The notes under the pieces are model-generated. The model made no database searches, had not been told where the DNA came from, and was given only the letters and a program-made list of their open reading frames with translations. Below, in pieces: positions 8,769 through 56,870 of a DNA stretch of 64,000 nt. The stretch covers positions 111,031 through 175,030 of the forward strand of contig CAWHXP010000006.1 of NCBI GenBank assembly GCA_963833425.1, given 5' to 3'. The stretch's first letter is position 1. Every line of letters starts with the position of its first letter. This stretch comes from an uncultured Methanosarcinaceae archaeon. GTDB lineage: Archaea; Halobacteriota; Methanosarcinia; Methanosarcinales; Methanosarcinaceae. A program made the translations under genes and the position numbers.

Positions 8769-8792
8769 AGTAATATCTTTAAATATTTTTTT

Positions 8793-31614: not shown

Positions 31615-32151
31615 TTACGAATTTTCACTGTCCATTGTTTGCTGGCCGGTTCCTACCTGATCTGCTTCACGCTCACAAACATAAGCGCCACCATTTGTGT
31701 TCCCGTACCAGCGTTGACCTTCTCCAACCAGATTAAACTTAGTTAGAATTTCTTTTAGAATGTCATTATTATCTGTCATGATTATCTCGACGTTCTGATT
31801 AAGATTCTCTGAAATAACATTCGTTTTTCTATATACCCGTCTTCCAAATTCGTCCGGAAACCTCTTTTCCAATATAAACATGCAAATCCTGCAATCTCCT
31901 GCATCTACTGCTTCTTTTATGCGTTCCAAAAGTGCTTTTGCGGCATTAGCGTTCCGCTTTTGGATAAATTTATAAAAATTAAAATATTTTTCAGAGTTCT
32001 CTGTCTTGCCCCTGTTCATATATTGATTGAATGTTTTATACGTTATTCCTGCAGCTTCGGAAGCAAAAGAATAGGTGAGTCCCAAAGAGATATTTTCACC
32101 AATTCTCTGTTGTATTTCATCGGTTAGTTTACAAGGTCTTGCCATGGTCAC
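31615..32151 (-). CDS. Terminase small subunit-like HTH protein (copy 1, longest)
   Basis: ARPCKLTDEIQQRI...ASEAAGITYKTF...MFILEKRFPDEFGRR resembles the phage TerS pattern GRPxKLT...AGI..T...LER+FP..WGR. Confidence 0.65.
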   Translation of the reverse strand: MTMARPCKLTDEIQQRIGENISLGLTYSFASEAAGITYKTFNQYMNRGKTENSEKYFNFYKFIQKRNANAAKALLERIKEAVDAGDCRICMFILEKRFPDEFGRRVYRKTNVISENLNQNVEIIMTDNNDILKEILTKFNLVGEGQRWYGNTNGGAYVCEREADQVGTGQQTMDSENS

Positions 32152-32512
32152 ACCGTTTTTTATTCAGTATAATTAATATAAGTGGATCTTGTATTTAATA
32201 TTTAGTTTAGTTCTGTTCGCGGTCGGGGTTTGTACATATCAAATCAGAGCCATTCTCCGGCGCTGTGAGCCTATTTTTTGAGTAGGGCAATTTTACTTTG
32301 AACTTAGGATAAAAGTCTCACCAGTTAGCTCAGAATAAGTCGTTTTCCGACCAAATCAAATCCCCATGATTGAAATATCGTTGCACGGTAACTACCTTTA
32401 AGATATTTTTTCATAAAATTTTATTACTTTAAAATGATATATATATTAAGTATTGTTGATAGGAAAAACCTGATAAACCGTGACTATTGTAATATCAAGA
32501 GTAGGAGAAGAG

Positions 32513-32880
32513 CGATTGTGGGGAGATTTAAGGCACTTTCTTGATTGAGTTAAGTTATTCACTTCGGGTGAATTATACGTCTGTTGTAGGGGATGAGAGT
32601 AAGTCATCCATTCATTGTCTGATAAAGGTTTCTGTCTATCATAGTTCATGAAATCGGGACTACATAATTTAATACTAATTACTTTACGTTCGTATAATAT
32701 ATTCAGAAAAGTATATAATTAATTAAATTTAATTTTGTTTAATAAATTTCCCCGTATATCAAATGAATGCAAAATCTAGCTGTAGGCATCCCCTTCGTCT
32801 GCAGCTCATAAGATTACCCTTTTTACATCTAAAATCAGCTGGATCACCTAAGCTAATAATATGAATTTGGATTCCATAAT
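32513..32880 (+). ncRNA. Repeated TATA-hairpin-U-tract element, copy 1 (candidate sRNA locus)
   Basis: TATATAA 32712, stem AGCTGTAG/CTGCAGCT 32778-32806, T-run 32820; homologous to 39119, 46606 and 61968. Confidence 0.45.
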
Positions 32881-33000
32881 CATGGAAAATTATACTAAAA
32901 TATTAAATGAATAAGGGAGATTTTGATTTCCCCACAATTCTTTTAGAACAGGATCGATACAATTTATAACAAATTATTTAACAATTCTTCAGTTAGATAT

Positions 33001-33408
33001 CTACAATTTATCTCCATGACCAATTTTTGAATCGGTCAGCAAAAACAAAGGTTTTACTTCTGTATTACCATCCTTATCGGTTATAGTGCAACCCAATTCA
33101 TGAATAACACCAAGTTGTTGATCAAACTCAGCTATTTGCTCTTGCATTGTTTTTTCGTGTGATGTGAAATATCTATGTTTACCTGTTTTGTCAAAAAATA
33201 CCGGAGTACACAAAAAAGAATGTTTCTCGATTGATGGGTCACAATCTACAATAAGTGCACTTGCGACTTTCCAAAGCTGTATCGTACCTTCTTCCCATTT
33301 ACACCGACGATCTTGGAGATAGTCTTCGTTTAATTTCGGCATCATTTGCAATGCAAATTCTGGACTAATTTCTTGTCTATAGTCGTCAATGAAACTCATT
33401 TTACTCAC
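33001..33408 (-). CDS. Hypothetical protein (element backbone)
   Basis: 135 aa, GGTGA RBS, overlaps the stop of the upstream HTH gene. Confidence 0.65.
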   Translation of the reverse strand: MSKMSFIDDYRQEISPEFALQMMPKLNEDYLQDRRCKWEEGTIQLWKVASALIVDCDPSIEKHSFLCTPVFFDKTGKHRYFTSHEKTMQEQIAEFDQQLGVIHELGCTITDKDGNTEVKPLFLLTDSKIGHGDKL

Positions 33409-33625
33409 CTTTCACTTTCTGCCAACCATAACCGTCGCCTTCAATTTCTATTTTATTTACTTTACCTTCATTTACAAGCTTATAAAGCATGTTTTTAGCA
33501 GTAGACCTGCTACATCCTACTAGGCTCATAATAGTAGCAGTGGACCTGATTCTATCAATTGATAGAGCATTCAGAAACATATCTTCTGTAAATTTCTGTT
33601 GAAATCTTGTTTTACCACCTTTCAT
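33401..33625 (-). CDS. Small winged-HTH DNA-binding protein
   Basis: STATIMSLVGCSRSTAKNMLYKLVNEGKV..IE...GW wHTH pattern. Confidence 0.7.
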   Translation of the reverse strand: MKGGKTRFQQKFTEDMFLNALSIDRIRSTATIMSLVGCSRSTAKNMLYKLVNEGKVNKIEIEGDGYGWQKVKGE

Positions 33626-33820
33626 ATTATTCGATCTACCGCCCGTTAATTTTCAAGAAACTACGCTACTATATACGATTTATTAGTATTTATACTTTTA
33701 TTATCACTTAGTAATGGTAATGGTTATTGATAACATTTTGATGCTTGGATAGCTGGTTATGTAGAAAATTTTGATGAAAGAAATTTGAACGAAGAAATTT
33801 TAAAAATAGAACAGACAAAA

Positions 33821-34144
33821 AATTGATATTCAGGCTAACTCTGTTCGTTATGTATATTTCATATTAGAAGCAAGCCTTCCGCTATTATATTCCCCAAAGT
33901 TCCCAATTATTCCCGTTATTTTCCCATTATATTCCCATTAAAAATAATATAAAAACAATAACAAGGGATTGGAAAATCATAAAATAAGGGGAATTATATT
34001 CCCAAAATAAAAAAATGATATAGGATTTCATAAAGCAATATCTGAAATATTAGAATGTCAAAAAATATAGTTTTTTATTTCTTTCTTGCATTTTCGGGCT
34101 TTTGGGAATAAAATGTCAACTGATTGCGTTTCAATGGGAAAATG
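33821..34144. repeat. Iteron/ori-like element copy 1 (right cluster truncated)
   Basis: TTCCC cluster then ATTAAAAATAATATAAAAACAATAACAAGGG... core shared with copies 2-4; breaks after CAATGGGAAAAT. Confidence 0.85.
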
Positions 34145-34295: not shown

Positions 34296-36053
34296 TTATT
34301 CATACCGATGTGGTGGTAGCAGTAGCCAGGTAATTCGCCCCACTTCATGCTCATTGTAAAGTTGACGAATGACAATCTTCTGTGGCGTTTGGTGCAACTC
34401 TGTCGGGATTTGTACAAGCATATGGCTTGCGGCCACAGTCCCGGCTGGCAATTCGATTCGGCCAAGATTATGACTGCCTTGTGGATGCACCGGTATACGC
34501 AAGCGTTGTAGGTTCCCTGGATCCGTTTCCGTGTCCTGGTACTTCTCCATCCGCGAAGGAAGTGGTTCCAGCCCATTGCCAATCCAATGTGGAACTTGCA
34601 GGGCAAGATTGCTTTTCACGGGGAGTTCGGCGTGTGTTTCCAGGGTAAAGGTATGTGGTTGGTCCCAAGCTCCTGTGATGTGAAAGGGCAGAGGAGTGAA
34701 GTTGTTCCAGGGTGGCTTGGGTGAAGGGTGCAGACTCGGAAAGACAACATTGAAATTGCGCCACGTTATGTTATTGTTAGCATAAATATAGTCCACGAAG
34801 TCATTGAAGGTCGCAAAATTCGATGGATTGGGCGCTGGTGCATCGGCATTTCCTACCGTAGCGACGAAACAATAGTGGCCTGCACCGGGAACTCGATCTG
34901 CCGGCCAGATAATACCGGGATCGGAAACTTCAACTACGCTTCCTGCCGGTACGTCCGGATAATATGCGGAGCCGATAAGGTTCCATAGGTTCGGAGTTAC
35001 CAGCGTTGCTGGCGGCGACCAGTAGACCGTTGCAAAGACATTGGATGCATCCGATCCTCGGTTCCAGGCACGCACATAAACGTAATTGGCCTGTCCTGTG
35101 ACGACATTAGTGTCGCTCTCTGTATCGCTGTTGATTGATACTGAGGTTGAGAAGGTCGTCTGAGGATCAGAAACCGGATTGTTTTTTAGGATGATGTCTG
35201 GGCTATCAGATAGAGATCCAGTATGGGACGTACCATCATCGGCAAGGTTGTGGCGGGTAAAGAGAACCGGAACCTGCAGGGGCTTTGCGCCCAGCGGGAA
35301 GGGATCGTCGGTCGGTTCGGGAGACTGACCCAAACTGGTTGGCTGAGATGGCAGACTCGTGCCGGGTGGTATGTAAGTTTCAATCAGCGTCGAAAAATTC
35401 GGCCATGGGTTTTGCACCCCAAGAATCTCGGCGGTTTCGGCGAGAGTGTTTTTCGTTGGGCCCCCAGCTCCGATGATGTCCGGCCAACGCAGTTTCACCT
35501 GATAGGCAAGGTAGTTCAAAAATAGTGATCCGCAACCTATAGAGACATAATCCTGATCGGTATGAAAGACGTTGTCAACCCAGTTCGATCGTGCCGGGTT
35601 TTGCGATGTCGAAACACCATTGAGCCAAGAATCACCTGTGCAAAACAGCCAAGCTCGGTTGGGATAGAGAATCTGGCCACAAACACGCGAGAGAGCTTCG
35701 CCATTGCTCCAAGAGGGAATCCAGCCTTTTGTCTGTTGATTCATAAAGATCTCGGCTTCTTCGGCGGCCACCAACCCAGGCAACCCCAATGGCTCAGTGC
35801 TCAGATTGCAGTAGCAGTAAATATTATTCAAAAGGTCGTTGCTGGCTCCCCCATTACCTGGAACGAGTTGGATCTTGATCGGAAGTGACGATGGCATGAT
35901 ATTGCCGAACAGTTTGCTGAGTCGCGCAAGATCATACTCACAATAATCGAGTACGCCTTGTGCCAACGCAACGCCGTCCGGTTGTCCACTACCGGTAAAA
36001 GAACTGTCATACAAAACAACGAAATTCTTGGTAGTTCCGTAATTTATCATCAT
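34296..36053 (-). CDS. Hypothetical two-domain protein, GC-rich and foreign-looking
   Basis: Intact 585-aa ORF with AAGGAG RBS; C-terminal SPDI...NYVYVRAWNRG...GHYCFVA...NNITWRNF beta-rich module. Confidence 0.8.
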   Translation of the reverse strand: MMINYGTTKNFVVLYDSSFTGSGQPDGVALAQGVLDYCEYDLARLSKLFGNIMPSSLPIKIQLVPGNGGASNDLLNNIYCYCNLSTEPLGLPGLVAAEEAEIFMNQQTKGWIPSWSNGEALSRVCGQILYPNRAWLFCTGDSWLNGVSTSQNPARSNWVDNVFHTDQDYVSIGCGSLFLNYLAYQVKLRWPDIIGAGGPTKNTLAETAEILGVQNPWPNFSTLIETYIPPGTSLPSQPTSLGQSPEPTDDPFPLGAKPLQVPVLFTRHNLADDGTSHTGSLSDSPDIILKNNPVSDPQTTFSTSVSINSDTESDTNVVTGQANYVYVRAWNRGSDASNVFATVYWSPPATLVTPNLWNLIGSAYYPDVPAGSVVEVSDPGIIWPADRVPGAGHYCFVATVGNADAPAPNPSNFATFNDFVDYIYANNNITWRNFNVVFPSLHPSPKPPWNNFTPLPFHITGAWDQPHTFTLETHAELPVKSNLALQVPHWIGNGLEPLPSRMEKYQDTETDPGNLQRLRIPVHPQGSHNLGRIELPAGTVAASHMLVQIPTELHQTPQKIVIRQLYNEHEVGRITWLLLPPHRYE

Positions 36054-36676
36054 GATTGACTCTCCTTGTATCAGAAATTCCGTTACTAGATTGCTAACAG
36101 GCTCGATGTAAATCGCTACCGCAGCATTATTGAGTGGATGATTTCTGCTTAGGTGTGCTCAGCAATTATTTCAGAACACTATTGGATGTCCGTCGAAATA
36201 CACAAAATTCACTGATTTGTGAAAAAAGTATAATTTTTAATCTATATAAATAGTAGTTCCGATTTTGCTGTATTTCCAAAGAACTGGTAGCCCACTTTCA
36301 TAGAGTTTATATTATATTAATAAACTATAATTATATCTATGGAAAAAGGATCCAAAGCACCGTTTACTGAAGTTGCTTTCCAATTGCAGAAATTATCTTA
36401 ATGCCACTACCATTTGCTGTTGCATACACTTCATTGGTTACATTACCGGAAAAGAATAGTACTGCCCGGAGTGACAGGGAAAAATCTTGTGTAGATAGAT
36501 GTTGTTGTAACACTTTGACCTGGATTAAGACTAGTAATTTCGGGTATGGAGAGATTGAAGGCATTTTGCTGAGTCTCATCGGGTATATTGAAGTCTAAAA
36601 CGAACCGATCGAAAAGATTGAAGAATAATGGTAGCATTTTATTCAGAATTTTTTTTCTTATTATTAGATCAAAATA

Positions 36677-37175
36677 ATGAATTATAATTTTCAACCCATG
36701 AGCGTCTTTAATTTGAGATTTCACATAACAAAAATGGCATACTGCCAATCTAGTTTAAATAAGTTAAATCACACTATAAATAGAAAAATGAGATATCTTA
36801 GGCTTTATGATTGTTCGTTTATGTCTATTTCTTATTGCAATTGTGTCTTCCGTTATTATATTCCCAATAGTTCCCAATTATTCCCGCTATTTTCCCATTA
36901 TATTCCCATTAAAAATAATATAAAAACAATAACAAGGGGATTAAAATCATAAAAAAAAGGTGGATTATTTTCCCAAAATAAAAAAATGATATAGGATTTC
37001 ATAAAGTAATATCCAAAATATTAGAATGTCAAAAAGTGTAATTTTCTATTTCTTTCTTGCATTTTGGGGGTTTTGGGAACAAAATGCCAACTGATTACGT
37101 TTTAATGGGAAAATAATGGGAATATTTTGGAAAAAAAGGGAAAATTGGGGAATAAAATAATCAGTTGCCGTTGTG
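36677..37175. repeat. Iteron/ori-like element copy 2
   Basis: TTCCC at 36861/71/81/92/36903; GGGAA(-like) at 37107/18/28/38/48; AT-rich core between. Confidence 0.88.
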
Positions 37176-37181
37176 CATAGA

Positions 37182-37260
37182 TCAAGTATCCTTCAGGAAG
37201 ATAAATTCCTTATCAAATAAGGACCATAAATTAAACTTTGATGTATCTATGCTGAACTTA
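37182..37260 (-). pseudogene. Extreme 3' remnant of the rep-like gene
   Basis: Reads KFSIDTSKFNLWSLFDKEFIFLKDT*, matching the ends of 47625..47948 and 56109..56333. Confidence 0.8.
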
Positions 37261-37874: not shown

Positions 37875-38795
37875 TCAGTTATCTGTTTCGAAACTTATCA
37901 TAATTACTGAAAATAATATCAAAATAGCACCAATAATTTGCCAAAATTTAAGTGATTCTTGTAGAACTAAAGCCCCCATTAATAAAACGCTAATTGGTTC
38001 GACCAGTAACAATATTCCAGCTTGTGATGCTTTTAATCGTTCTAATCCTTTATTAAGGAGGACATAAGGTAAAAATGTAGCAATAACACTTAAACCAACT
38101 AATAAAATCAATGCATTAGAAGGTAATGTAGTTCTAAAATTTATAATAAGTTTTTCACTTGTAATTAGTTTTATTATTAACCAACTGGGAAATAGCCACA
38201 TCAATGCAGGAATAAATGACCAAAATGTTGTTGCTACAAAACTATATTCCTTTTTAACTCCTACATAACGACCTGAAATTATATATGAAGCATAGAAAAA
38301 ACCATTTAGAATTGCTAGAAAATAACCTATAAGTTGTTTATTTGCAACTGTATTGATCATCCATATTTGCAAAATCAATGCAACTCCAATAAGTGACAGA
38401 AAAGCTGACGTTAATCGTGTAAATGTGATTTTCTCATCTAAAATATATTTGCTCAATATTATTACAAAAAAAGGCTGGGTGTATGTCAAAAAGACTGCTT
38501 CACTTGCTAAAATTCCCAGTGATATTGAAGATAAATATGTCAAATGCGACATTGTTATAAAAAAACCAAAACAAATAAAAGTAGAAACATCTGTTTTTTT
38601 TAACTTAATTAATTTATATCCATTAAATATCAATATTAAACATAATAATATTAGTATAGAAATGGCTAGCCTAAAAAAAACTTGTTGAAATGATGACACT
38701 TCAAATAGGCGCAAAAATACTGAGAATATTGGAATCGTCCCAAAAAGGAAACCACTCAACAAAATTTCTATTCTGCTATTATTTTTAGAGTTCAT
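37875..38795 (-). CDS. EamA/DMT family transporter
   Basis: About 10 hydrophobic segments in two EamA repeats; QPFFV, EKIT, VEPIS, GAILIL. Confidence 0.9.
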   Translation of the reverse strand: MNSKNNSRIEILLSGFLFGTIPIFSVFLRLFEVSSFQQVFFRLAISILILLCLILIFNGYKLIKLKKTDVSTFICFGFFITMSHLTYLSSISLGILASEAVFLTYTQPFFVIILSKYILDEKITFTRLTSAFLSLIGVALILQIWMINTVANKQLIGYFLAILNGFFYASYIISGRYVGVKKEYSFVATTFWSFIPALMWLFPSWLIIKLITSEKLIINFRTTLPSNALILLVGLSVIATFLPYVLLNKGLERLKASQAGILLLVEPISVLLMGALVLQESLKFWQIIGAILILFSVIMISFETDN

Positions 38796-39118
38796 TTAAT
38801 CTTCCAAATATTATTATAATATTTGTTTAAATTATTACTTACAAGATTTATTAATTCTACTAGATGTGGGATTTAGATCCTATTTGAAAAATCATAATAA
38901 TTAATCAGTCTTGTTTGTCTACACAAAGTTGCAGGAATCTCTGACCAACTAAGCAAATAGGCTGCCGAACAAGTCGATGGTTACCTATGCTACCGTTCGG
39001 TAATGAATATTTAAAAGAAACGAGAATCAAATTAGAGTATGAATTTCAAGAGCTAATTTGAGATCATATGCTTAAATACATACTTAAATAAAAGTAATAT
39101 TATAAAATGTATGAAGAT

Positions 39119-39470
39119 CGATTGTGGGGAGATTTAAGGCACTTTTTCGAGTGAGCTAGGGCATTAACTTAAAATTAATTATTAGCATGTTGTAGGGCCT
39201 GAGATTAATTTATTTATTGAATAGTATTAAACAGCTACCTTATGTTGTAATTGCGAGATATGGAACATGTAATTTAAATTACTAATTAGTTTAAGGTTCA
39301 CTATTTAGAGTATGTGGAAAAAATATATAATAAATTAAATTTAGTCCTAATTCAAAGGTCTACCCTCCCTTCAACCAATCCTTCTATGGACTGCAGGCAC
39401 TGATTTACTTGCAGTTCATAAAGATCAACTTTTTAAATATTCCTGATCAGGATAAATCCTTAAAGTCCGT
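39119..39470 (+). ncRNA. Repeated TATA-hairpin-U-tract element, copy 2
   Basis: Shares CGATTGTGGGGAGATTTAAGGCACTTT with 32513; TATATAA 39324; stem 39390-39415; T-run 39430. Confidence 0.45.
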
Positions 39471-39901: not shown

Positions 39902-40963
39902 TCATGAACCGATGTTTTTGGCCTCTTTAAGGTTTTTTTCCTTCAAAGCTTGCTTTATTGGAGGGGTAATAAGGGGCTTTTCTTTGATCAATCCATCGGG
40001 TTTGTAGTAGAGTATCATCAGCATTATCATTCCAAACAATATATATTCAAGCCAGGTGGCTTCGAAAGGTAGCTGGAGTATGCTCCTGATCTCAAATTTA
40101 TATACAGTTAGGGAGACCTTTGTGAGAACAAAAAAGAGTACTCCCAGTGCTACACCCTTATTATTTCCCCTGCCTCCTAAAAGAACCATGAGGAATGGAA
40201 AAAATGTCCATTCAACCCTGGAGAAAGTGGAAGCTATAACATTCATGCTGTAAAAGGAATACAGTGCTCCAGCTAGTGCTGCTATGCTCGAACCCAGAGC
40301 TGCAGTCTTCATTCTGAGAACAAGAATATCCTTGCCAAAAGCCCGAACGACGTCTTCGTTTTCCCTCATTGCCTTCAAAAGCCTGCCGTAGGGTGAGGTG
40401 AGAATTTTGTCTACAAAAAGATAAACTATTAGCGCTGTACCAAAGATCAGAAGTGTAACATAAATGATCCGCCACTCTCCTGGTATCCATGCTAATACAT
40501 TAGGAACGCTTACACCATAATAGCCCCCTATTATGGAGGTATCGTAATTTGAGACTTGATATAGAACCTCACTCATTGCAAGTAGAGCAATTGAAAGGTA
40601 CTCATTTTTTAGTTTTGCGCTAGGAAGGATGAAAAGAATACCCGCCATAGCGCCTATAAAAGCAGCTAACAGAAGAGAGAGTACAAGAATGCACATTCCC
40701 AAAAGCGGATTGTGGGAAATCATCGTATTCATGGTGCTCTTAACAATTCCGCTTGCTTCTACAATTTCTCCATCTAAGCCCAAAAGGAGCATGAGAACAT
40801 GATTCATAACATACCCAACAGTTATGGCTCCGATAAGAACAGCCATAGCTCTACCAAAATTGGGAATGCCAGCGTAACCATACTCAACATTCAGGCTGAG
40901 TGCAACTATGAGGTATATGGAGAACCATAGTACTATATCTAAGAAGAAGTATGCCATCTCCAC
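39902..40963 (-). CDS. Branched-chain amino acid ABC transporter permease (LivM-like)
   Basis: SLNVEYGYAGIPNFG, SPYGRLLKAMRENE, YKPDGL. Confidence 0.9.
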   Translation of the reverse strand: MEMAYFFLDIVLWFSIYLIVALSLNVEYGYAGIPNFGRAMAVLIGAITVGYVMNHVLMLLLGLDGEIVEASGIVKSTMNTMISHNPLLGMCILVLSLLLAAFIGAMAGILFILPSAKLKNEYLSIALLAMSEVLYQVSNYDTSIIGGYYGVSVPNVLAWIPGEWRIIYVTLLIFGTALIVYLFVDKILTSPYGRLLKAMRENEDVVRAFGKDILVLRMKTAALGSSIAALAGALYSFYSMNVIASTFSRVEWTFFPFLMVLLGGRGNNKGVALGVLFFVLTKVSLTVYKFEIRSILQLPFEATWLEYILFGMIMLMILYYKPDGLIKEKPLITPPIKQALKEKNLKEAKNIGS

Positions 40964-43523: not shown

Positions 43524-43547
43524 TGGAAGCTGGAACGAACATGCAGT

Positions 43548-45837: not shown

Positions 45838-45943
45838 TCCATTTATTGTAAGTTTGATAGGTTACACCAACATTTTCGGCAGCAAGAGAATATGAAAGTT
45901 CTAAAGCAATATTGTAACCTATTCGTTAGTGTGCGTTTTCATC
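45838..45943 (-). pseudogene. terS-like internal remnant (copy 3)
   Basis: DENAH*RIGYNIALELSYSLAAENVGVTYQTYNKW versus DEIQQRIGENISLGLTYSFASEAAGITYKTFNQY. Confidence 0.7.
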
Positions 45944-46605: not shown

Positions 46606-46810
46606 AAGACTACGTAATTCTAATACTAATTAGTTTTGGTCAGTACAATTTAGAATTTATACAAAAAATATATAACTGATTAAATGTTCTATAATTTAAC
46701 GGTTTACCAGTATTTTCAAGCAAACCTACCATCTAACTGCAGGCACTACTCACATGCAGTCACAAATCAACTTTTTGGTATCTAAGATCAGCCGGGTCAT
46801 TTAAATTAAC
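46606..46810 (+). ncRNA. Repeated TATA-hairpin-U-tract element, copy 3
   Basis: TATATAA 46669; stem ACTGCA/TGCAGT 46736-46760; T-run 46772. Confidence 0.45.
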
Positions 46811-47120
46811 AAAAACTAAGTTATTGATGGCTTTCGACGATGTATTGGTTGTTATTTACATGCTCGATGACAAAATTACGATGAAGCAAGCAGTATATTT
46901 TATAGTTAAAATCAGTATTGGCTGTGCATTTTTGGGTATCTTGATAGGAATATTTACTTTGTTTTTCTTAGTGAAACAGAATTAAAATAAGCACCAGAGA
47001 GATTAAACAAGTTCAAAGCACTGATAAAATAAAAATCAGCCCACCGAAATTTGTTCAATTAGTCGCATGAAGGCGACTATTGGGAATGTTTTTCGCGAGC
47101 GGAATAATTGGCTCTTCTAA

Positions 47121-47620
47121 AATATGATTTTCAACCAACTAGAGTCTTCAAATTTGAGATTTCACAGAACCAAAACGGCGTACTGCCAATCTACTTAATT
47201 AAGTTAGATCACAATCATAAAAAGAAAAATGTGATATTCAGACTTTATGATTGTTCGTTCATACTCATTATTTATTACAAGTATGTCTTCTGTTATTTAT
47301 ATTCCCATTAGGTCCAAATTATTCCCACTATTTTCCCATTATATTCCCATTAAAAATAATATAAAAACAATAACTAGGGAATTAAAATCATACAAAAAAG
47401 GGAATTATATTCCCAAAATAAAAAAAATGATATACGATTTTTTTAAAGTAATATCCGAAATATTAGAATGTCAAAAAGTGTAATTTTTTATTTCTTTCTT
47501 GCATTTTCGGAGTTTTGGGAACAAAATGTCAAATGATTGCGTTTCAATGGGAAAATAATGGGAATATTTTGGGATAAATGGGAATATTTGGGGAATAAAA
47601 GAATCATTTGCCTTTGTACC
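47121..47620. repeat. Iteron/ori-like element copy 3
   Basis: Colinear with 36677-37175, including both TTCCC and GGGAA clusters. Confidence 0.88.
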
Positions 47621-47624
47621 CTAA

Positions 47625-47968
47625 TCAGGCGTCGTTCAGGAAGATAAATTCCTTATCAAAGAGTGACCAGTAATCAAACTTTGATTTATCTATGCTGAAC
47701 TTAAAAGCCCTATTTCCACTACTGCTTTTTAGCGTTTCTCCATTTCTCTCATATTTTGTATCTGTTTCTTCTTCCATTTTTAACCCCTTAATCTTGTCAA
47801 GGAGTCCACCGGCTTCTCTGTCTTTCCTACCAACTAAGGCTCTTTTCACGCTTTGATAGTTAATGCCTGTGTGACTTGATATATCATTAATTGTGCATTT
47901 CGCTTTACTCGCTATATATTGGATTATCTGCCTTTCGTTTTCGTTCATTTTTGTTACAGTGTTCTCTG
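47625..47968 (-). pseudogene. 3' remnant of the rep-like gene (C-terminal wHTH)
   Basis: ENTVTKMNENERQIIQYIASKAKCTINDISSHTGINYQSVKRAL...; near-identical to the 56109 region. Confidence 0.75.
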
Positions 47969-48376
47969 ATAGGACTAGGCTATAGACAGGCTCAATGTAA
48001 GGTTTTCATTCGTTGGTAATGATTTTTGTATAATAGTCGCCACAAAATCACTCTTAAAGTCTCTAAAGTAGTTTCCGTGGGCTTTGCAGACAACTGTTTT
48101 TGGTGACCGTTGTGGCTATGTTAGAGATCGTAATAGAGATCATCATATATAGACAATGAAGGTTTATCTGGATTTGTTGGCCATAGCGAATTATTTGATG
48201 ATTACTGCCCTAAAGTTGTAGATTTAATTTATTATATAGTTTTTCCATATACTCTAACTATTATATTAAAAACTATTTGGTATTTTAAAATCACGAAGCT
48301 CAAATATGTTAATTTAATATAGGGAAGCTTTTCATGCTAGTCAATAAATGACTATATCTCAGCCTTACAGCATGCT

Positions 48377-49028
48377 TATAATGCATTCAATAGGAGAACT
48401 TTAACCAACTCCTGAAAATGCCTTGAATCGCCACACAATCAACCTTCTTTTCTTTATTTAATTGGTTTAGGTGGCCCAGGCGCTGATCCAAAATATCGAG
48501 GAATTTCAAGCACTATGAATTCATGACTTTATTTCCGATCTCTTCTGCTACCTCTCTTTCAGCTACAGGTACTGTGACCATAATTTTTCTAGTTGCCCTA
48601 TTTTTGCAGAGTTCAATGGCTGCTCTCATGGTAGAATCCATTGCAATACCATCATCTACAAGTATCACGGTTCTTCCTTTCATATTGCAGGGAATTTCCT
48701 CCTCTGAAAGCTTTTATGTGTCTATCGATCTCTGCAATCTGCTGCTGTTTGATTTTCTCAATATTTTCCTCTGAGAACCAGTAATAAACATTTTCAAAGA
48801 TGAAAGTGCTTCCATTCTCGACTATTGCCCCAAACCCGGCTTCAGAGTTATCCGGAAAAGACAGTTTCTTTGTAATGATGAGGGAAAAATATACTTTAAG
48901 TTCCTTGCAATCTGCAATCCTACTTCCACTCCCCCACGCGGGATAGCAAGAATGAGAGGGTTTTCTGCCTTGTACTTTTCAAGAGCCTCGGCAAGTTTCT
49001 CTCCGGCATCTTTACGATTTTGGAACAT
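48377..49028 (-). pseudogene. Phosphoribosyltransferase family pseudogene
   Basis: MFQNRKDAGEKLA...LAIPRGGV, then frameshifts; PRPP-loop-like VILVDDGIAM.STM..A and VTVPVA fragments downstream. Confidence 0.8.
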
Positions 49029-49635: not shown

Positions 49636-51231
49636 ATGAATCTTAATATAAAGCCGCTGGTTTCATTGAATAATCCACGTCATTTATGGTTTGTTTTACT
49701 AGCCATATGTCTAGTTAACTTCATGTTCAACTTTTACATTGGTCTGGTCAACGTTACTTTACCCACTATAGCCGAATATTACCATACTGATGTAATGACC
49801 GCCACCTGGATATCTAACATTTATTTGTTAACCCTCACTATTTCTGTAATATTTTTAGGTAGAATTGGTGGCTTATGGAGTCGTAAGAAATTTTTTATGT
49901 TAGGAACGTTGATATGGGTCACTGCCTCATTGCTTTGTTACTTTTCAACATCAGCAGAATCACTTATTATATATAGGGCGATTCAAGGATTTGCAGCAGG
50001 TTGCATGGCATCTGTTTATTACGCTATAATGGATCGCACATTCCCCCATGAAAAATTAGGATTTGCTCTGGGATTCCTGCTTCTAGCATTAGCTGGGGGT
50101 TATGCAATCGGACCACTTGCCGGTGGTTATATTGCAGCGTACATTGGCTGGCAATATATCTTCTTAGCTGTAATCCCATTTGGTTTGGCGAGCTTTATAG
50201 TATATTTAGTTACAGCTCAAAAACCAGAAGCTGATAACGACTTTGAACTTCTAGATAAAAGGCAACAATATAAAAATCAAGACCCTGATTCAAGTGACGC
50301 TTCTATATTCGCCAAAATTATAGATTATAAAGGAGCCATCCTGCAAGCAGGAGCGCTATTTACACTTACTTACGTGTTAATATTAGCACAAAAATTCGGC
50401 TTTAGCACTTATGACATTATGTTGCTAGCATTAGCCACAATTTTTGGACTCTTGTTTGTCTGGGTGGAGTCAAAGCATGAAGAACCTTTATTCAGGTTTA
50501 CAGTCTTCCGTAGCCTCACTTTCTCTGCATATATAACTGGATTACTAGTAAATTACATAATCTTATATATGGCATTCTTCATCTTACCATTTTACTTCCA
50601 AAAGGTTATCGGTATCCCTGTTAACGTTACGGGTATCCTTATAAGTGTAGTATGGTTCTCCTCCACGGTCATATCTCTCATAGCCGGAGGGCTTGCAGAT
50701 AAAATCGGAGTGAAACCACTGGTTATTACAGCAGCCTTGGCTTGTATTGTAAGTACCATTATGATACATAGTTTCCAAACAACTGCCAATTGGTTATACA
50801 TTATACCGTCTTTGATTATTCTAGGATTGGGGTATGGTTTTTATCAGTCTCCTAACAATAAAATGCTACTGTCAGTAACTCCATTAACCTTCAAAACACA
50901 AATTTCGGCGACAATGACTCTAACCAAAAACCTAGGATCAGTTCTAGGTAATGCTTTCGCAGGACTTATAATTGCTACCGCCGTTGCGCAAAGTTCACTT
51001 AGTGGTAAAGTTGGATTATCCGCGAGCCAAGCAGCCAGCTTCCTTACAGGGTTCCAAAGAATCTTCCTATTTGGAGCTATTCTAAGTGTGTTACTTTTGA
51101 TATCCGCCATAGACTTAGAAAAATACGTAGGGAAACATTTATCAAAATATTTTACAGGTCTTAAGGAATACGAAGAAGAGGACGAGCACAAAAAAAATTC
51201 GGAAAAACCCCTACCGAGGGTGATTGAATAA
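49636..51231 (+). CDS. MFS transporter, 14-TM DHA2-like
   Basis: VNVTLPTIA, WISNIYLL, RAIQG, GPLAGG, GWQYIF, SPNN. Confidence 0.9.
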   Translation: MNLNIKPLVSLNNPRHLWFVLLAICLVNFMFNFYIGLVNVTLPTIAEYYHTDVMTATWISNIYLLTLTISVIFLGRIGGLWSRKKFFMLGTLIWVTASLLCYFSTSAESLIIYRAIQGFAAGCMASVYYAIMDRTFPHEKLGFALGFLLLALAGGYAIGPLAGGYIAAYIGWQYIFLAVIPFGLASFIVYLVTAQKPEADNDFELLDKRQQYKNQDPDSSDASIFAKIIDYKGAILQAGALFTLTYVLILAQKFGFSTYDIMLLALATIFGLLFVWVESKHEEPLFRFTVFRSLTFSAYITGLLVNYIILYMAFFILPFYFQKVIGIPVNVTGILISVVWFSSTVISLIAGGLADKIGVKPLVITAALACIVSTIMIHSFQTTANWLYIIPSLIILGLGYGFYQSPNNKMLLSVTPLTFKTQISATMTLTKNLGSVLGNAFAGLIIATAVAQSSLSGKVGLSASQAASFLTGFQRIFLFGAILSVLLLISAIDLEKYVGKHLSKYFTGLKEYEEEDEHKKNSEKPLPRVIE

Positions 51232-52082
51232 TGAATTTAAAAAACAATTATTCGATAATAGGTATAATTGTTTTGGTAGTAATAGCTGTTGTTGTAGGTT
51301 ACTCAGTATTATCTGGTGCCAGTATAACTATTGCTGGATCAACTTCCGTAGCTCCTGTAGCTCAAGCATTAGCTAAAGCTTACATTAGTAATCATCCTGG
51401 TATAAAAATATCGGTAAATGGTGGTGATTCTGGGGTGGGTATAAACAGCGCACGTTCAGGAAGTGTAGATATTGGGACTTCATCACGGGATTTAACTAGT
51501 TCTGAAGCGCAGGGTTTATCACAGTATGTTATTGGACAGGATACTCTTTCGATAATTGTGAACCCATCAAATCCTGTGAATGATCTTTCCCTAGATCAGG
51601 TGGCTGGTATTTATACAGGTAAAATCACTAACTGGAGTCAAGTGGGTGGAAAGAATGGTAATATCGTACCCCAAACCCGAGAAGCTGGATCTGGTACACG
51701 AGCTGATTTTGAAAAATTTATGAATATTAGATCATATGGCACTAACGTTCAAGTGGATACATTTAACTACGGACTTTTACAATCAGTGGTCGTAGTTCCA
51801 GATGCTATTGGATACATAGCCCATGATTATGTGATTAAGGAAGTTAAAGTACTATCAGTGAACAACATCAGCCCTACACAACAAACCGTCCAAAATGGAA
51901 ATTATCCACTTACACGAAAATTGATATTCCTAACTAAAGGAATACCTACTGGAAATGTTAAAGACTTCATCAACTTCTGCCAGAGTCACGAAGGACAAGA
52001 TATAGTGAATAATACAGAATGGAATAATTCAAACAACACTGTCTATAATCCAACCTCAGGAATAGGACCTTCAGGGGGATAA
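51231..52082 (+). CDS. pstS: Phosphate ABC transporter substrate-binding protein
   Basis: AGSTSV, GDSGVGI, SSR, REAGSGTR, AIGY, YPLTR; start overlaps the MFS stop (TAATG). Confidence 0.88.
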   Translation: MNLKNNYSIIGIIVLVVIAVVVGYSVLSGASITIAGSTSVAPVAQALAKAYISNHPGIKISVNGGDSGVGINSARSGSVDIGTSSRDLTSSEAQGLSQYVIGQDTLSIIVNPSNPVNDLSLDQVAGIYTGKITNWSQVGGKNGNIVPQTREAGSGTRADFEKFMNIRSYGTNVQVDTFNYGLLQSVVVVPDAIGYIAHDYVIKEVKVLSVNNISPTQQTVQNGNYPLTRKLIFLTKGIPTGNVKDFINFCQSHEGQDIVNNTEWNNSNNTVYNPTSGIGPSGG

Positions 52083-52181
52083 TTTCCCTTATTATTTTTT
52101 TAACTGGATCACTTATTTAATAAACGAGTGAATCCAGTTAAAAAAAGAAGGTATCTTTCACCTTAAGAACTGTTAAAGTCT

Positions 52182-52471
52182 TCACTGAAACATCTTTCCA
52201 GTTCCACATACATATCCGCTTTTCCCCGCTTCTGCTTCTGTATTCAGACGTCCCAAAAGGGATTTAGACGCATCTACATTATGTTTTTGAATGTGTTGAT
52301 AAAACTGGTAATATTTCCCAGATGTTGAATTTCGTCCTTTCTTGAGCCAGTCGTTTAATGTATGATAGTGATTCCTGCAGCTTCGGAAGCAAGAGCAGAG
52401 GGACATCCTAAAGCAACGTTGTCACCAATTTCCGTGGTTATATTAGGGATCATTTTAATCTGTCTAGCCAT
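52182..52471 (-). pseudogene. terS-like remnant (copy 4)
   Basis: MARQIKMIPNITTEIGDNVALGCPSALASEAAGIT-(fs)-HTLNDWLKKGRNSTSGKYYQFYQHIQKHNVDASKSLLGRLNTEAEAG aligns to copy 1. Confidence 0.8.
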
Positions 52472-53033
52472 GGTTGCACCGTTTTTCACTTCTTTTTAAT
52501 AATATATGATATGCAGTCTTATTCCAAATATTTGCTTATTTATTTGATGCATGATGTAGCTGAGATTTGGATATTTAATCAAAAACAAACGATCAGAGGA
52601 CTTTGTGAGGTATTCTTTTACCAAGTTAATGTTTTCCTATTAGACTATCTATATAAGTCCAATCAGCGACCCAGATTAAGTTATTTTTTAGCCAAAATGA
52701 ATCCCCATGTTTGTATTGCTCCATAACGAGAGGTAGCTTCGAGATATTTTAGATAAATTTTAATTCTTTTAGAATAATATAAATTAAATTTATATGGATA
52801 CTTGTTTAGATTTTTGGATAATTTCCATATTTCTGTATAGTATTTAGTTTTAGCATGTCTATTTAGAATATATGGGGAAAAGATATAATAAATTAAATTA
52901 AGATGTGCATGGCAAAAAATTAATCTAAGAAATTGTGCCGGTAAACTCAATCGATCAGAAATTGCCGCAGAATATTCAGTTTTAATGCTATAATTCACAC
53001 GTTAAATATTCAAACAAATGGAAGTGAACTAAA

Positions 53034-54581
53034 ATGAGTAGCAGACTACGAATTGTGATAATGACAGTATTTATATTAGCTTTTGCTTGCAGTATAAGTG
53101 CAGTCGTTGCAACACCTGAAAGTAGTGATGTATATGTAAATATCCATGGCAGTGATGTCCATGATGGAACCCAAGATGATATCTACGCAACTATTCAAGA
53201 AGGTGATGTATATGTAAATATTCATGGCAGTGACGTCTATGATGGAACCAAAGATGATATCTATGCAGCTATCCAAGAAAGAATAGATAAAGCTCCAGAT
53301 AACCGTACAGTGTATGTAGCTCCCTACGAAACTATTCAAGAAGGAATAGATAAAGCTTCAGATAACGGTACAGTGTATGTAGCACCTGGAACTTACAAAG
53401 GAAAAGGTAACTCTATACTAAAAGTTAAAAAAAATCTTACAATAATTGGATCTAGCTCTGAAAAGACCATACAAGACGGTGGAAATGTTAATGAAGCATT
53501 CATTATATATCCGAATGTAACTGCTACTATTAAGAATTTTATCCTTCGAAATTTTGACCAGGAATTAGGTGGCGCCATCACTGATCTGGGGAACCTTACC
53601 TTAATAAATGTTAAATTAGTAGGTGATACCGCAACCAATGCATCAATTTCTACTAACAATGAGGGTAGCTATCCTACGAAACTCAAAGGTACTTTAACCC
53701 CTATAAATGTAACTTATTTAGGTAATATAAAATCCACTGGTGGAAAATCAGCTGGTTGGAATGCTCATGAATTAACCAAGTTCATCCACGATAAGAGCAA
53801 TTATACTTTCCTAGTTTGCGGTGATTCTAGGAATGACATGGGAAACCTCGCAAGCATGATAAACGTGGCAAACAAGCAGAATGCATTATTCACGGTTTTT
53901 GAGGGTGATATGAGAGATACGACTGATTACCTATATGCATTTAAAAAGATTTACCTACCACCAAGTTCCTACACTCACTTTAACATGCCAATATTATTTA
54001 GCATCGGCAACCATGAAGAATATAATGAAAACGGAACAACAGACAATGCAGAATCCACCTATCATTACATATTTGGTAATGAAAGTTATTACAGTTGGAC
54101 TGAGAGTAATGCTTATTTCATCGAACTTGACAATGATGATGGAAACATCCCTATAAATGAATATGGCTGGTTAAAAGATCAATTAGATAAAAGTACCAAA
54201 TTCAAGTACACTTTTATCTTCATGCACATCCCACTATGGACTCCAGCAGATCAATCACCACACAGCATGAGCGTTAATGATACAAAAACTACCATCGGAG
54301 CAACTACTCTTCAGAAATTGTTTAACAGCTGCCCTAACATTACGATGTTATTCGCTTCTCACATACACAACTCTTACACTGGAAAGTGGGGCTCTACACC
54401 CTTCATTATCAATGGAGATTCAGGAGCACCATCGTACTTAGGCATGACTAATGGTACAGTTACTAACCCAGCACATCGTGATTTCATCAAAGTAACAGTT
54501 ACCGATAGAAAAGTTACCTACGAAAATGTTAGTTATCCCGCAGTAGCGAACAACTATGATTTCATCACACAACCATTATAA
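53034..54581 (+). CDS. Secreted calcineurin-like metallophosphoesterase with adhesin-like N-terminus
   Basis: Signal peptide; GDSR, GD, GNHE, HIP and SHIH metal motifs; N-terminal DVYVN..G.D..DGT...TIQEGID...TVYVAPGTY. Confidence 0.85.
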   Translation: MSSRLRIVIMTVFILAFACSISAVVATPESSDVYVNIHGSDVHDGTQDDIYATIQEGDVYVNIHGSDVYDGTKDDIYAAIQERIDKAPDNRTVYVAPYETIQEGIDKASDNGTVYVAPGTYKGKGNSILKVKKNLTIIGSSSEKTIQDGGNVNEAFIIYPNVTATIKNFILRNFDQELGGAITDLGNLTLINVKLVGDTATNASISTNNEGSYPTKLKGTLTPINVTYLGNIKSTGGKSAGWNAHELTKFIHDKSNYTFLVCGDSRNDMGNLASMINVANKQNALFTVFEGDMRDTTDYLYAFKKIYLPPSSYTHFNMPILFSIGNHEEYNENGTTDNAESTYHYIFGNESYYSWTESNAYFIELDNDDGNIPINEYGWLKDQLDKSTKFKYTFIFMHIPLWTPADQSPHSMSVNDTKTTIGATTLQKLFNSCPNITMLFASHIHNSYTGKWGSTPFIINGDSGAPSYLGMTNGTVTNPAHRDFIKVTVTDRKVTYENVSYPAVANNYDFITQPL

Positions 54582-54997
54582 AAATAATATTATAATTGTC
54601 AGGAGTAAAAATCGTAAACCCTTTAGAAGGTATTCACTTTTCTTTATTCTATTTTTTGAAATCATGATAATAAAAATTGGGTTCATAAATTTCCAAAATG
54701 CTATCAGTATTAAGAAATATTTTTGATCTCTGGCGCACTGAGCTCCTGGAACATATGAAATTAATTTAACTAAATAAAATTATAAATATCAAATATAAAA
54801 AAATATATTATTAAAACTTGGAGATATAATATCCGACTTTAAACTATAAGGCTCATTGTACTTGATTCATATATAATGCTAAGTCATATTATCTATAAAA
54901 ACGTGATAATTCTATTATGTGAGATTTTATTAAGAGTATAAATTAACAGATACGGTAGAGTAGCAATGAAAAAAAGATAATATTTGGAGAGAAAAAC

Positions 54998-55360
54998 ATG
55001 AGTCCGAAGATAAACTCAACAAGTTTCGGTTCGATTACTCTCAATGAAAATTATTTTGAAAATGATATCCTTATCTGCATGAGTGGACAGATAGAAAAGC
55101 GTAAGAAAAAACTTTCTAAAGAAGCCTATGGTACATCCCATAAAATCTCGCTTGCAGAGGCGAAACTCATCTATGAAAAAGGAGCAGATGAAATAATAAT
55201 AGGAACTGGTCAGACTGGTTACGTTGAGCTATCAAAAGAAGCAAGGAAGTTTTTCGAGGAGAAAGGGCTTGAGGTAAAACTCCTTCGCACTCCGAAAGCG
55301 GTCAAACTATGGAACGAAAGTGAGGGAAAGATAATAGCAATGTTTCATGTGACCTGTTGA
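54998..55360 (+). CDS. Mth938-like domain protein
   Basis: FGSITL, GTSH, IIIGTGQ.G, TPKA...WN, FHVTC. Confidence 0.85.
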   Translation: MSPKINSTSFGSITLNENYFENDILICMSGQIEKRKKKLSKEAYGTSHKISLAEAKLIYEKGADEIIIGTGQTGYVELSKEARKFFEEKGLEVKLLRTPKAVKLWNESEGKIIAMFHVTC

Positions 55361-55604
55361 AAATTAGAAATACTTCTGTTTTTAAGTGCCTGGAAAAACA
55401 GTCTTTTCGAAATTTACCATGATCTCCACCGAGTTTTTTGGCCCCTGGAACATTTGGAATTAATTTATCAAAATATTTTGTAGGATGAATGGTGTACCGG
55501 TTATTTTAGTAGTAGCTCTTTTTGTAGTATCAATAGCATCAGCGGCGTTTAGTGCGTACTGTCTATTATGCGCCTTTAGTCACAGTACTTCTGAAAAATA
55601 ATGA

Positions 55605-56105
55605 GATATAATTTTCAACCCATGAACGTCTTTAATTTTGAGATTACACAGAACAAAAAGGCATACTGTCATTCTACTTCATTAAGTTAAATCACAATCA
55701 TAAACAGAGAAAATGAGATATACTAAGCTTTATAATTGTTCGTTCATGTACATTTCTTATTGCAAGTGTGTCTTGCGCTACTATATTCCCATTTATTCCC
55801 AATTTTTCCCGTTATTTTCCCATTATATTCCCATTAAAAAATAATATAAATACAATAACAAGGGAATTAAAATCATCAAAAAAAGGGTAATTATGTTCCC
55901 AAAATAAAAAAATGATATACGATTTTTTTAAAATAATATCCGAAATATTAGAATGTCAAAAAGTGTAATTTTCTATTTCTTTCTTGCATTTTCGGGGTTT
56001 TGGGAATAAAATGTCAACTGATTATGTTTTGATGGGAATAAAATGGGAATATTTTGGGATAAATGGGAATATTTGGAGAATAAAAAAATCAGTTGCCTTT
56101 ATGCC
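55605..56105. repeat. Iteron/ori-like element copy 4
   Basis: Colinear with copies 2 and 3, with both iteron clusters. Confidence 0.88.
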
Positions 56106-56108
56106 CTA

Positions 56109-56870
56109 TTAGGTACCCTTCAAGAAAATAAACTCTTTATCAAATAATGACCAGAAATTAAACTTTGAATTATCTATACTGAATTTGAAAGCCTTCCTTC
56201 CACTACTGCTTATTAGCGTGTCTCCATTTCTCACATAATTTGTATCCGTTTCTTCTTCCATTTTTAACCCTTTGATCTTGTCAAGGAGTCCACCGGCTTC
56301 TCTGTCTTTCCTACCAACTAAGGCTCGTCTCACACTTTGATATTCAATGTCTGTATAACTTGATATGTCATTAATTGTGCATTTCCCTTTACTTGCTATA
56401 TATGAATTATCTGTCTCTCATTTTCGTTCATTTTTGTTACTGTATTTTCTTTTTGAAATTCGAATAATCGTCTTGCTCTTTCAAAGCCTTCAATCTCAGC
56501 TAGTAAATATTCACCGTCTTCAAAGGTTCTCTGCTTCCATTTGAAGGCAGCAAAACCCCGGACCATTAAGGAACATTGGAAATATACGTGAATTACTTGT
56601 ATCCTGAAGGTCTATCCTATCCACATAGGGTATTTTAACCTTAAATAAATTCTGTTTAAGTGCTCCATAAATTCGTCTGCATATAAGTACTTCAGTGTTT
56701 ATCTACTGGCCATTTTCACCGTTCGCAGCTTCGTTTTTTTGTGCATCAAATATCCTTTCTGCTTCTTCTTCTGCCTGCTGGATAAGTTCGGGGCTTAAGT
56801 CCATTTCATCATAGTCTATATTTATGAGATTATCTTTTTGAGCTTCTGGCTCAGGTTTCTTCTGGCTAAC
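56109..56870 (-). pseudogene. Longest remnant of the rep-like gene (helicase/primase-type C-terminal region)
   Basis: Broken frames read ICRRIYGALKQNLFKVKIPYVDRIDLQDTSNSRIFPMF...FAAFKWKQR...LLAEIEGFERARRLFEFQKENTVTKMNENERQI...wHTH; internal deletions; function inferred. Confidence 0.6.

Follow-up and report, generated by a model that had tools for sequence, protein, structure and literature searches.

Comparison with known satellites and integrative elements

In the staphylococcal pathogenicity islands (SaPI), the map runs from int and stl/str through pri-rep to an origin in which two sets of iterons flank an AT-rich region, and then to terS, the gene of the small terminase subunit (TerS). 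An element family with a comparable arrangement is described here from Methanosarcina, starting from a 64,000-nt stretch of DNA of an uncultured Methanosarcinaceae archaeon (GenBank assembly GCA_963833425.1, contig CAWHXP010000006.1, positions 111,031 to 175,030). This whole stretch is called the window, and coordinates are positions in it unless a related locus (L001 to L014) is named. The repeat region at 31-57 kb, about 25 kb of Methanosarcina chromosome, probably consists of the remains of at least four copies of one integrative-element family, which lie in the same orientation and have diverged independently; none of them is functional here. A sequence-only reading had taken the region for an array of helper-dependent satellites resembling the phage-inducible chromosomal islands (PICI). 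One element family with the SaPI/PICI gene order and without virion genes was indeed recovered from the relatives; whereas the dependence on a helper virus found no direct support; TerS had no match in phage or archaeal-virus records and no significant match to solved TerS structures.

The family shares several properties with the SaPI/PICI. Its gene order follows the SaPI map: integrase, divergent small genes, primase-initiator, iteron origin after rep, small genes, and TerS near the far end. The elements are small and have neither virion nor large terminase genes, and extra genes are inserted near the ends, for example the PDC-S37/Hhe candidate of L003. The end-located integrase was found in relatives only (intact in L002, disrupted in L006 and L009); an own initiator with an adjacent iteron origin is present in L009, and the window keeps only 3′ stubs of it. 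TerS, assigned by PHROG profile and BFVD fold, occurs without large terminase or virion genes (0 of 170 open reading frames, ORFs). The differences are also clear. The host is an archaeon, the initiator (Rep) combines a PrimPol domain with a plasmid-type P-loop domain, and no repressor was recognised. Moreover, the compact form of about 8.5 kb is below typical PICIs, and the window copies are all dead.

Satellites have also been described in Archaea. According to the available part of a preprint (bioRxiv 10.1101/2025.02.15.638363), only pSSVx and pSSVi, with spindle-shaped helpers, had been described before the SRCE elements, which are plasmid-derived, were proposed as satellites of haloarchaeal spindle-shaped viruses. 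As far as the same part goes, these elements resemble the present family as small plasmid-type replicons without a full virion module, proposed or shown to ride in the particle of a helper; whereas their helpers are spindle-shaped viruses and they carry an AAA+ ATPase and/or a capsid protein. The family described here instead carries TerS, which would make sense only with a tailed (terminase-packaging) helper. An Asgard virus satellite was proposed in a 2026 preprint. For Methanosarcinaceae, ties to families of tailed viruses have been reported on the basis of CRISPR.

The cryptic integrated elements and integrative plasmids of Archaea (pRN1 with its ORF904-type protein, pTN2, and thaumarchaeal elements such as NitKor-E1) have a tyrosine integrase and an initiator of the PrimPol-helicase-winged-helix type, as does the present family. 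As may be true of the present family, they integrate near tRNA genes and form arrays at one site, according to the available part of a review (PMC6563490), which also says that terminase had not been found in non-viral mobile elements. NitKor-E1 likewise has terminase genes without other virion genes; however, its TerS and large terminase occur together and were read as a virus relic, whereas the present family has TerS by itself, conserved under selection and in many copies. The characters of such an integrative element (integrase, plasmid-type initiator, no virion genes, tRNA-linked attachment site, att) were all found, with tRNA-Gln at one of four left ends; those of a tailed provirus of the Caudoviricetes (large terminase, portal and HK97-type capsid) were not.

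Related loci and the fuller element

Relatives were retrieved with an exact 20-mer of the origin in a species-representative genome collection, which gave 14 loci. Eleven of them come from four Methanosarcina or Methanosarcinaceae metagenome-assembled genomes; the other three lie in bacterial genomes and were taken as chance matches. By BLAST, 8 of the 11 loci have TerS or its fragments no more than 10 kb from the origin; L001, L010 and L014 lack them. In most of the eight, TerS or the fragments are on the side of the origin opposite to rep. Beyond the window, too, the parts of the element are linked and travel together.

A fuller element was pieced together from the related genomes; it is about 8.5 kb in compact form and longer with inserts. 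The gene content of the loci supports a unit that would consist of a tyrosine integrase, a divergent gene pair with small ORFs, a Rep of about 750 aa, the iteron origin, the small genes wHTH74 and u135, a promoter-like cassette (repeat H), and TerS beside an att-like site. In L006, a compact unit of about 8.5 kb (about 7912-16468) has all parts in order and most genes on one strand: integrase, divergent ORF pair, four small ORFs, a PrimPol gene with a 172-aa ORF, origin, wHTH74 with u135, H cassette and TerS. The C-terminal 107 residues of the 172-aa ORF equal the wHTH107 of the window (Table 1). The divergent pair beside the integrase (13852-14777 in L006) had no match in Pfam, PHROG or PADLOC. 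An intact tyrosine integrase of 405 aa with a C-terminal zinc ribbon is present in L002 (PHROG_1, 8.5e-29); no integrase remnant was found in the window.

The preservation of the three main genes differs among the best loci. TerS is whole in L009, L006 and L002. Rep is whole in L009, where the integrase is spread over three frames; in L006, Rep lacks residues 262-569 and the integrase has a frameshift and an in-frame stop; in L002, the integrase is whole and Rep is reduced to residues 675-751, the rest of rep being replaced by an H cassette and an EamA gene. Some of the gene breaks in the relatives are suspected to be assembly errors of the metagenome-assembled genomes.

The virion-gene screen covered 170 ORFs. 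L006 contributed 22 (>=70 aa), and the other ten loci together 148 (non-nested, >=90 aa). None of the 170, and none of 40 ORFs in the window, matched large terminase, portal, capsid or tail families, so that a full module of large terminase, portal and capsid, as an ordinary provirus would carry, is missing from the relatives.

Elements of this family take up genes. For example, an oxidoreductase, a DHH phosphoesterase and a TPR gene lie between TerS and the origin in L009, and DUF4325 and PIN genes lie there in L002. In L003, a fragmented candidate defence helicase-nuclease (2983-7684, four ORFs; PADLOC PDC-S37 at E=1e-249 and Hhe at E=9e-99) is located between the tRNA-Gln-linked terminal block and TerS. 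DHH/DHHA1 phosphoesterase genes occur near the origins in three of the 11 loci (L009 6501-7363, L001 8493-9848 and L013 12877-13860). Fragments of a family A DNA polymerase, an enzyme unusual for Methanosarcina, lie by element debris in L003 (14595-15320) and L009 (15253-15534) and probably come from another mobile element.

The TerS-like protein

The 178-aa protein TerS1 matched phrog_4102, annotated 'terminase small subunit', at E=1.7e-20 over residues 3-131 (profile positions 9-142 of 166), with weaker matches to phrog_309 and phrog_1482. The homologues number 255, and some sources label them 'transposase'. A profile of 36 family members recovered 7551 representatives at E<=1e-3; all 40 of the sampled full-length distant relatives also matched phrog_4102, and only one of the 13 listed cluster members was named, as 'hypothetical protein'. 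The AlphaFold model has a three-helix N-terminal part and long helices. Its search against BFVD gave nine fold matches at E<=1e-3, all of them tailed-virus proteins, and the named matches lower in the list were TerS or phBC6A51-type homeodomain proteins. The identification as TerS is thus carried by the phrog_4102 profile, with further support from the fold matches to tailed-virus proteins; the PDB searches by sequence and by fold did not reproduce it. Altogether, mixed and mostly favourable evidence supports placing the protein in a viral TerS family.

Four terS-like positions had been proposed in the window (31615, 45287, 45838 and 52182). They proved to be one intact gene, one pseudogene and two fragments (Table 1); the ORF beside 45838 is a TPR gene whose 102-nt repeats are unrelated to TerS. 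The TerS copies are only about 68% identical. The ratio of nonsynonymous to synonymous substitution (dN/dS) was 0.11-0.30 in all ten pairs of intact copies; TerS is under purifying selection, a measure in which past selection within active elements is not separable from present selection. No large terminase gene lies beside TerS in the window or in the 11 loci, which is the state expected of a satellite terS.

The origin and the Rep initiator

Self-BLAST found four copies of the origin (O1 to O4) in one orientation, 85-88% identical. Alignment showed a common layout, with a left TTCCC-type iteron array, an GGGAATTATATTCCC palindrome, an AT-rich centre, and the same iterons inverted in a right array. 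WTTCCCR motifs number 65 in the window, where 38.8+-5.7 were expected (0 of 100 shuffles reached 65). Of the 65, 30 fall inside the four origins, whose combined length is about 1.07 kb (1.7% of the window). Within every origin the plus-strand matches all come before the minus-strand ones, with a phasing of 10-11 nt. Conservation is highest in the origin core (0.92-0.99 column majority), a value inflated at 47333-47352 by the retrieval with the 20-mer.

An uninterrupted Rep of 751 aa is encoded in L009, with the origin directly after the rep stop codon. It has a PrimPol domain at residues 5-258 (Pfam 4e-16, PHROG 4.5e-18), a middle part with Walker A (GTSGSGKS) and Walker B (IIIFSDD) motifs, and, at 631-675, a winged helix. 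Similarity to the Rep of Methanothermobacter plasmids of about 4.4 kb was found for residues 366-609 (E=8e-8); the sequence search against PDB gave no match. Three window matches in tblastn with this protein identify the rep-like 3′ ends that had been noticed before as true ends of a PrimPol-type Rep. No whole rep was found in the window.

The gene is cut from its 5′ side in L009, L005, L014, L006 and all window remnants, at residues 316, 326, 523, 570, 598, 632, 643, 674, 675, 699, 705 and 720; neither the origin nor the 3′ end is ever lost. About 15 protein clusters contain full-length homologues of Rep (721-757 aa), and for two of them NCBI gives a Methanosarcina genome as the source. Contigs of 7.7-10 kb carry several of the Rep and TerS homologues, a finding compatible with active or episomal copies and no proof of them. 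Among the Rep homologues P0139-P0180, precomputed Pfam labels show the C-terminal module PF27228 joined to PrimPol or to DnaG-type zf-CHC2/Toprim, a case of domain swapping in the initiator.

Repeat H and the small genes

Repeat H is AT-rich and occurs in five copies by self-BLAST, one of them inverted. The repeat itself had been recognised correctly in the sequence-only reading; its label as a hairpin element was dropped, as the DNA folding of three copies was no better than that of shuffles (z=-0.7, 0.0 and -0.4). The conserved core, ...TATTTAGAATATATGGAAAAAATATATAATAAATTAAAT..., resembles what we take to be an archaeal promoter with BRE/TATA motifs, and H looks like a promoter-like cassette; the core recurs several times as a short cassette in the related loci. 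Identification as a miniature inverted-repeat transposable element was ruled out, there being no terminal inverted repeats within the H copies. Downstream of the core, two copies have a CTGCAG...CTGCAG stem and then a T-run (39385-39420 and 46735-46760); the fold of the stem is not significant (z=-1.6 and -0.8), and stem and T-run could be the end of a small transcript.

Two small genes stand between H and the origin in copy A. The wHTH74 protein is 89-95% identical in L006 and L007, with a dN/dS of 0.09-0.22; the AlphaFold model of u135 is poor (pLDDT 42). The H-to-origin segment exists in two unrelated forms, with u135 and wHTH74 in copy A and other sequence in copy C.

Element ends and history of the array

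The repeats are restricted to 31-57 kb of the window. By self-BLAST, their parts recur in one orientation and in the order terS, H, origin and rep, at or near the positions first proposed, and the copies are diverged (68-88% identical) as that proposal held, which leaves no room for a recent tandem duplication. The decay of the backbones was confirmed as well, as neither an integrase nor a whole rep is present and rep 3′ stubs and TerS pieces are left.

The left-terminal block of about 230 nt is 80-86% identical, with the same starting motif, in L003 (612), L005 (50) and L013. The motif can also be written AGGACTAT-N13-ATAGTyCT (window 31391, L003 612, L005 50). In L003, the 3′ acceptor end of a tRNA-Gln gene overlaps the AGGACTA of the motif, which fits a putative integration at tRNA-Gln. 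On the integrase side, the similarity between L006 and L002 ends inside ...GTTTAGGACTATAAACTTT, a breakpoint also given as ...TTTAGGACTATAAACTTT. An 18-nt direct repeat in L006 (7442 and 16427), the only direct repeat near the ends, was rejected as att and looks like a shared promoter/start sequence.

At the right edge of the island, a glycosyltransferase gene is cut at the end of the rep remnant. It is whole (377 aa) in L003 and borders element debris there too, with window 56871-57307 89.7% identical to L003 16466-16907; the island is thus probably in the same neighbourhood in two species. The block 49597-52898 (MFS, PBP, TerS pseudogene and H) is syntenic with L004 11486-14788 at 88% identity. 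This synteny from O3 to H indicates that part of the mosaic predates the species split or moved as a block.

Unit A (31391-34143) is the best-preserved copy of the window. One orientation, one terminal site and a decay that rises away from this site fit successive insertions at one att and later deletions. According to the available part of the review, tyrosine-recombinase elements form such arrays at one site (PMC6563490). Repeated integration at one hotspot, as suggested by the sequence-only reading, is plausible in that the L003 terminal block abuts tRNA-Gln; however, the window has one att-like site (31391), no integrase remnant and no tRNA.

Table 1. Positions of the element parts and of the genes between them in the window
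Feature	Position	Strand	Remarks
Left-terminal block	31391..31624	+	Starts AGGACTAT-N13-ATAGTTCT, imperfect inverted motif; candidate att arm
TerS1, intact TerS-like gene	31615..32151	-	178 aa; phrog_4102
H copy 1	32507..32731	+	Folding z=-0.7
u135, conserved small element gene	33001..33408	-	73 homologues of ~132 aa; beside wHTH74 in L006, L007
wHTH74, 74-aa winged-helix protein	33401..33625	-	Weak helix-turn-helix family matches
O1	33818..34143	+	Left iteron array and AT-rich centre; cut at start of right array (truncated)
585-aa ORF between O1 and O2	34296..36053	-	In 49% GC stretch
O2	36671..37260	+	Complete; rep remnant 37164-37259 on minus strand; tail piece 37296-37398
rep remnant in O2	37164..37259	-	Rep residues 720-751 (tblastn, L009 Rep query)
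EamA-family transporter gene	37875..38795	-	Pfam E=1.7e-33; adjoins rep remnant
H copy 2	39113..39434	+	Longest; folding z=0.0
Branched-chain amino-acid ABC transporter, 5 genes	39902..45012		2 permeases, binding protein, 2 ATPases; Pfam
TerS N-terminal fragment	45266..45367	-	Residues 2-35; tblastn E=6e-5; DNA match to TerS 5′ regions of L003, L005
Second TerS N-terminal fragment	45827..45925	-	Residues 14-46; tblastn E=1e-6
TPR-repeat protein	45942..46520	-	Five to six 102-nt repeats; Pfam; adjoins TerS fragment 45827-45925
H copy 3	46614..46776	+	Right half only; folding z=-0.4
O3	47120..47600 (repeat match to 47967)	+	Complete: 5 phased iterons, GGGAATTATATTCCC palindrome, AT-rich centre, inverted iteron array
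rep 3′ end, winged-helix domain	47610..47966	-	Residues 632-750; 107-aa ORF at 47625-47948 (wHTH107)
H copy 4	48219..48447	-	Inverted; self-BLAST
MFS transporter and PBP-like binding protein genes	49636..52082	+	Pfam
TerS pseudogene	52175..52506	-	Split over two frames; BLAST
H copy 5	52838..52902	+	Core only; self-BLAST
Metallophosphoesterase and DUF498 genes	53034..55360	+	Pfam; no PADLOC match
O4	55595..56090 (repeat match to 56450)	+	Complete
Longest rep remnant	56094..56882	-	Residues 523-750 with frameshifts, and residues 316-360
Glycosyltransferase gene, first 48 codons	56870..57016	-	Cut at rep remnant end; right edge of island

The satellite interpretation and its alternatives

A life cycle can be proposed for the intact element. 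The integrase would insert the circular form at a site resembling the 3′ end of tRNA-Gln, and Rep, judging from its domain content and position, would bind the iterons via its winged-helix end and prime and unwind its own origin. As the element has no virion genes, its own TerS would use the large terminase of a helper; with somewhat less than even confidence, TerS might direct this enzyme of a tailed virus to package element DNA, as in SaPI/PICI. In the window, deletions would have taken the integrase and the 5′ rep side of every unit, leaving origins, rep 3′ stubs and TerS pieces among ordinary cellular genes and one foreign gene. A satellite lifestyle is plausible on these grounds and is put forward tentatively.

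Several results weigh against it. No helper candidate was found, and TerS in tblastn had no match among 50,697 phage and archaeal-virus records. In the available parts of the sources, the isolated Methanosarcina viruses are spherical (MetSV) or unconfirmed (MetMV), a spindle-shaped one comes from metagenomes, and none is tailed. No locus has integrase, Rep and TerS all verifiably intact. The TerS model is confident only at residues 10-90 (mean pLDDT 62.8). Its comparison with PDB folds was not significant (best E=0.83), with Sf6, PaP3 and phBC6A51 TerS-type entries in the top 10. The PDB sequence search had no TerS-related match (the only one below E=0.01 was a de novo-designed helical barrel, 0.0016), and no Pfam family, TerS families included, was matched. 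The conservation of the origin is affected by the retrieval bias mentioned above, and the tRNA-Gln link was seen at one of four left ends, with a shared core of 8 nt only.

The same elements might instead be integrative plasmids that need no helper virus, in which the TerS-family protein would be a helix-turn-helix factor for regulation, excision control or partition and the window a set of decayed integrated plasmids; we regard this as a real, if doubtful, possibility. The replication module is plasmid-like, since the PrimPol, P-loop and winged-helix parts of Rep follow the layout of pRN1 ORF904 and its middle part matches the Rep of the small Methanothermobacter plasmids. The missing helper, the lack of significant similarity to solved TerS structures, the 'transposase' labels and the episome-compatible size of the 7.7-10 kb contigs point the same way. 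However, the phrog_4102 match spans almost the whole protein and reaches beyond the helix-turn-helix, the 40 sampled distant relatives share it, and the fold matches are tailed-virus proteins. The gene order also equals that of SaPI. Terminase is moreover unreported in non-viral mobile elements, in the part of the review available (PMC6563490).

A domesticated interference locus is improbable. Here the origins and the rep winged-helix stubs would titrate or block an incoming Rep, the intact TerS would disturb virus packaging, and the array would be kept for the benefit of the host. This would account for the consistent loss of rep from the 5′ side at many points (316 to 720) with origin and 3′ end kept, for an origin core more conserved than its flanks, for the open 107-aa winged-helix ORF of copy C, and for the still open TerS1, u135 and wHTH74. 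However, the stubs decay too (32 residues are left in copy B, and copy D is frameshifted), dN/dS is blind to the difference between selection in formerly active elements and selection today, the conservation measure is biased by the way the loci were retrieved, and neither TerS nor u135 had a PADLOC match.

Segmental duplication and rearrangement within the chromosome, without separate insertions, is likewise unlikely. It would agree with the single orientation of all units, with the one terminal site and absent integrase remnant, and with the promoter-like H copies at several junctions, which could mediate recombination. However, the origin tree is star-like, with one of 13 inner branches supported, and the four window copies do not form a clade; they differ from one another (85-88% identity) as much as they do from the copies of other species, which argues against recent duplication in situ. 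The low identity of the TerS copies and the two unrelated forms of the H-to-origin segment also speak against it. Finally, it is very improbable that the region goes back to ordinary tailed proviruses whose structural genes were lost: the TerS family is otherwise seen in tailed viruses, whereas no ORF of the loci or window matched virion families, the compact unit measures only about 8.5 kb end to end, and TerS stands at the element end by the att-like block with no large terminase adjoining.

With separate insertions of one element family as the preferred explanation of the array, the family may tentatively be regarded as the first PICI-type satellite of tailed viruses in Archaea, one that carries only the small terminase and would steal the capsids of head-tailed Methanosarcina viruses; the arrays might persist because they hinder elements or viruses that enter the cell. 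Full-text searches of the literature, supplements aside, gave no description of the family. Terminase piracy drives much gene transfer and anti-phage defence in bacteria. If the interpretation is true, a TerS-only integrative element in methanogens would extend this piracy to the archaeal domain, and it predicts tailed helper viruses of Methanosarcina, none of which has been isolated so far. The defined pair of origin and Rep could be of use for Methanosarcina vectors, and the origin 20-mer is a marker for locating mobile islands in these genomes. Even without a satellite role, the region shows how elements decay and become interleaved with host transporter genes.

Genes between the repeats and other features of the window

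The left third of the window is core chromosome, with genes for haem synthesis, the primase PriS, GINS, eIF2-alpha, PyrBI and CbiD. No tRNA genes or Rfam families were found in the window. The genes between the repeats (Table 1), among them also phosphoribosyltransferase fragments by Pfam, appear to be mostly ordinary cellular genes for transporters and enzymes, with the 585-aa ORF as the exception. This ORF had no match in Pfam, PHROG, NCBIfam or PADLOC. In the ESM Atlas it has a look-alike score of 0.99 to a cluster of bacterial (Acidobacteriota-labelled) hypothetical proteins, and a lower-ranked look-alike is named neutral metalloprotease; it is likely a foreign insert. PADLOC gave no match to defence genes among the window proteins tested, TerS and u135 included. 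The 515-aa metallophosphoesterase has an N-terminal region with tandem coding repeats of 63-78 nt (53125-53386).

The earlier suggestion that each unit brought its own cargo is not upheld, as the intervening genes are mostly of ordinary cell type and the EamA protein of the window is only 28% identical to that of L002. In three genomes (window 37875-38795, L002 8287-9198 and L003 11116-11700), a rep 3′ stub has an EamA gene just upstream of it and on its own strand; this recurrence is either coincidence or recurrent capture. Shared cargo was ruled out by the 28% identity between window and L002 against 96% between L002 and L003. TPR genes also adjoin origins in L009 and L001; a role as backbone gene was rejected, since the proteins of the window and of L009 share only about 20% identity. 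Given these low identities for EamA and TPR, the window transporter genes cannot be attributed to the elements; they may belong to the host and have become enclosed by insertions.

Three further features lie to the left of the island. The first, at 14226-14837, is a 612-nt near-perfect palindrome (88%), whose two arms match, in opposite directions, the 3′ part of a pentapeptide-repeat gene in L005 (7728-7933); a gene end seems to have been duplicated here in inverted form. An IS5-family transposase fragment at 30566-31009, close to the left edge of the island (NCBIfam E=3e-20, short of the curated cutoff), may account for the missing tRNA and left flank. An IS6/IS240-family transposase lies at 26683-27550 (ORF 26782-27381, minus strand; Pfam E=1.8e-42). 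Its copy is 95-97% identical to those of L010 and L014, far closer than any element part, which indicates a recently active insertion sequence common to the window and the genome of L010 and L014.

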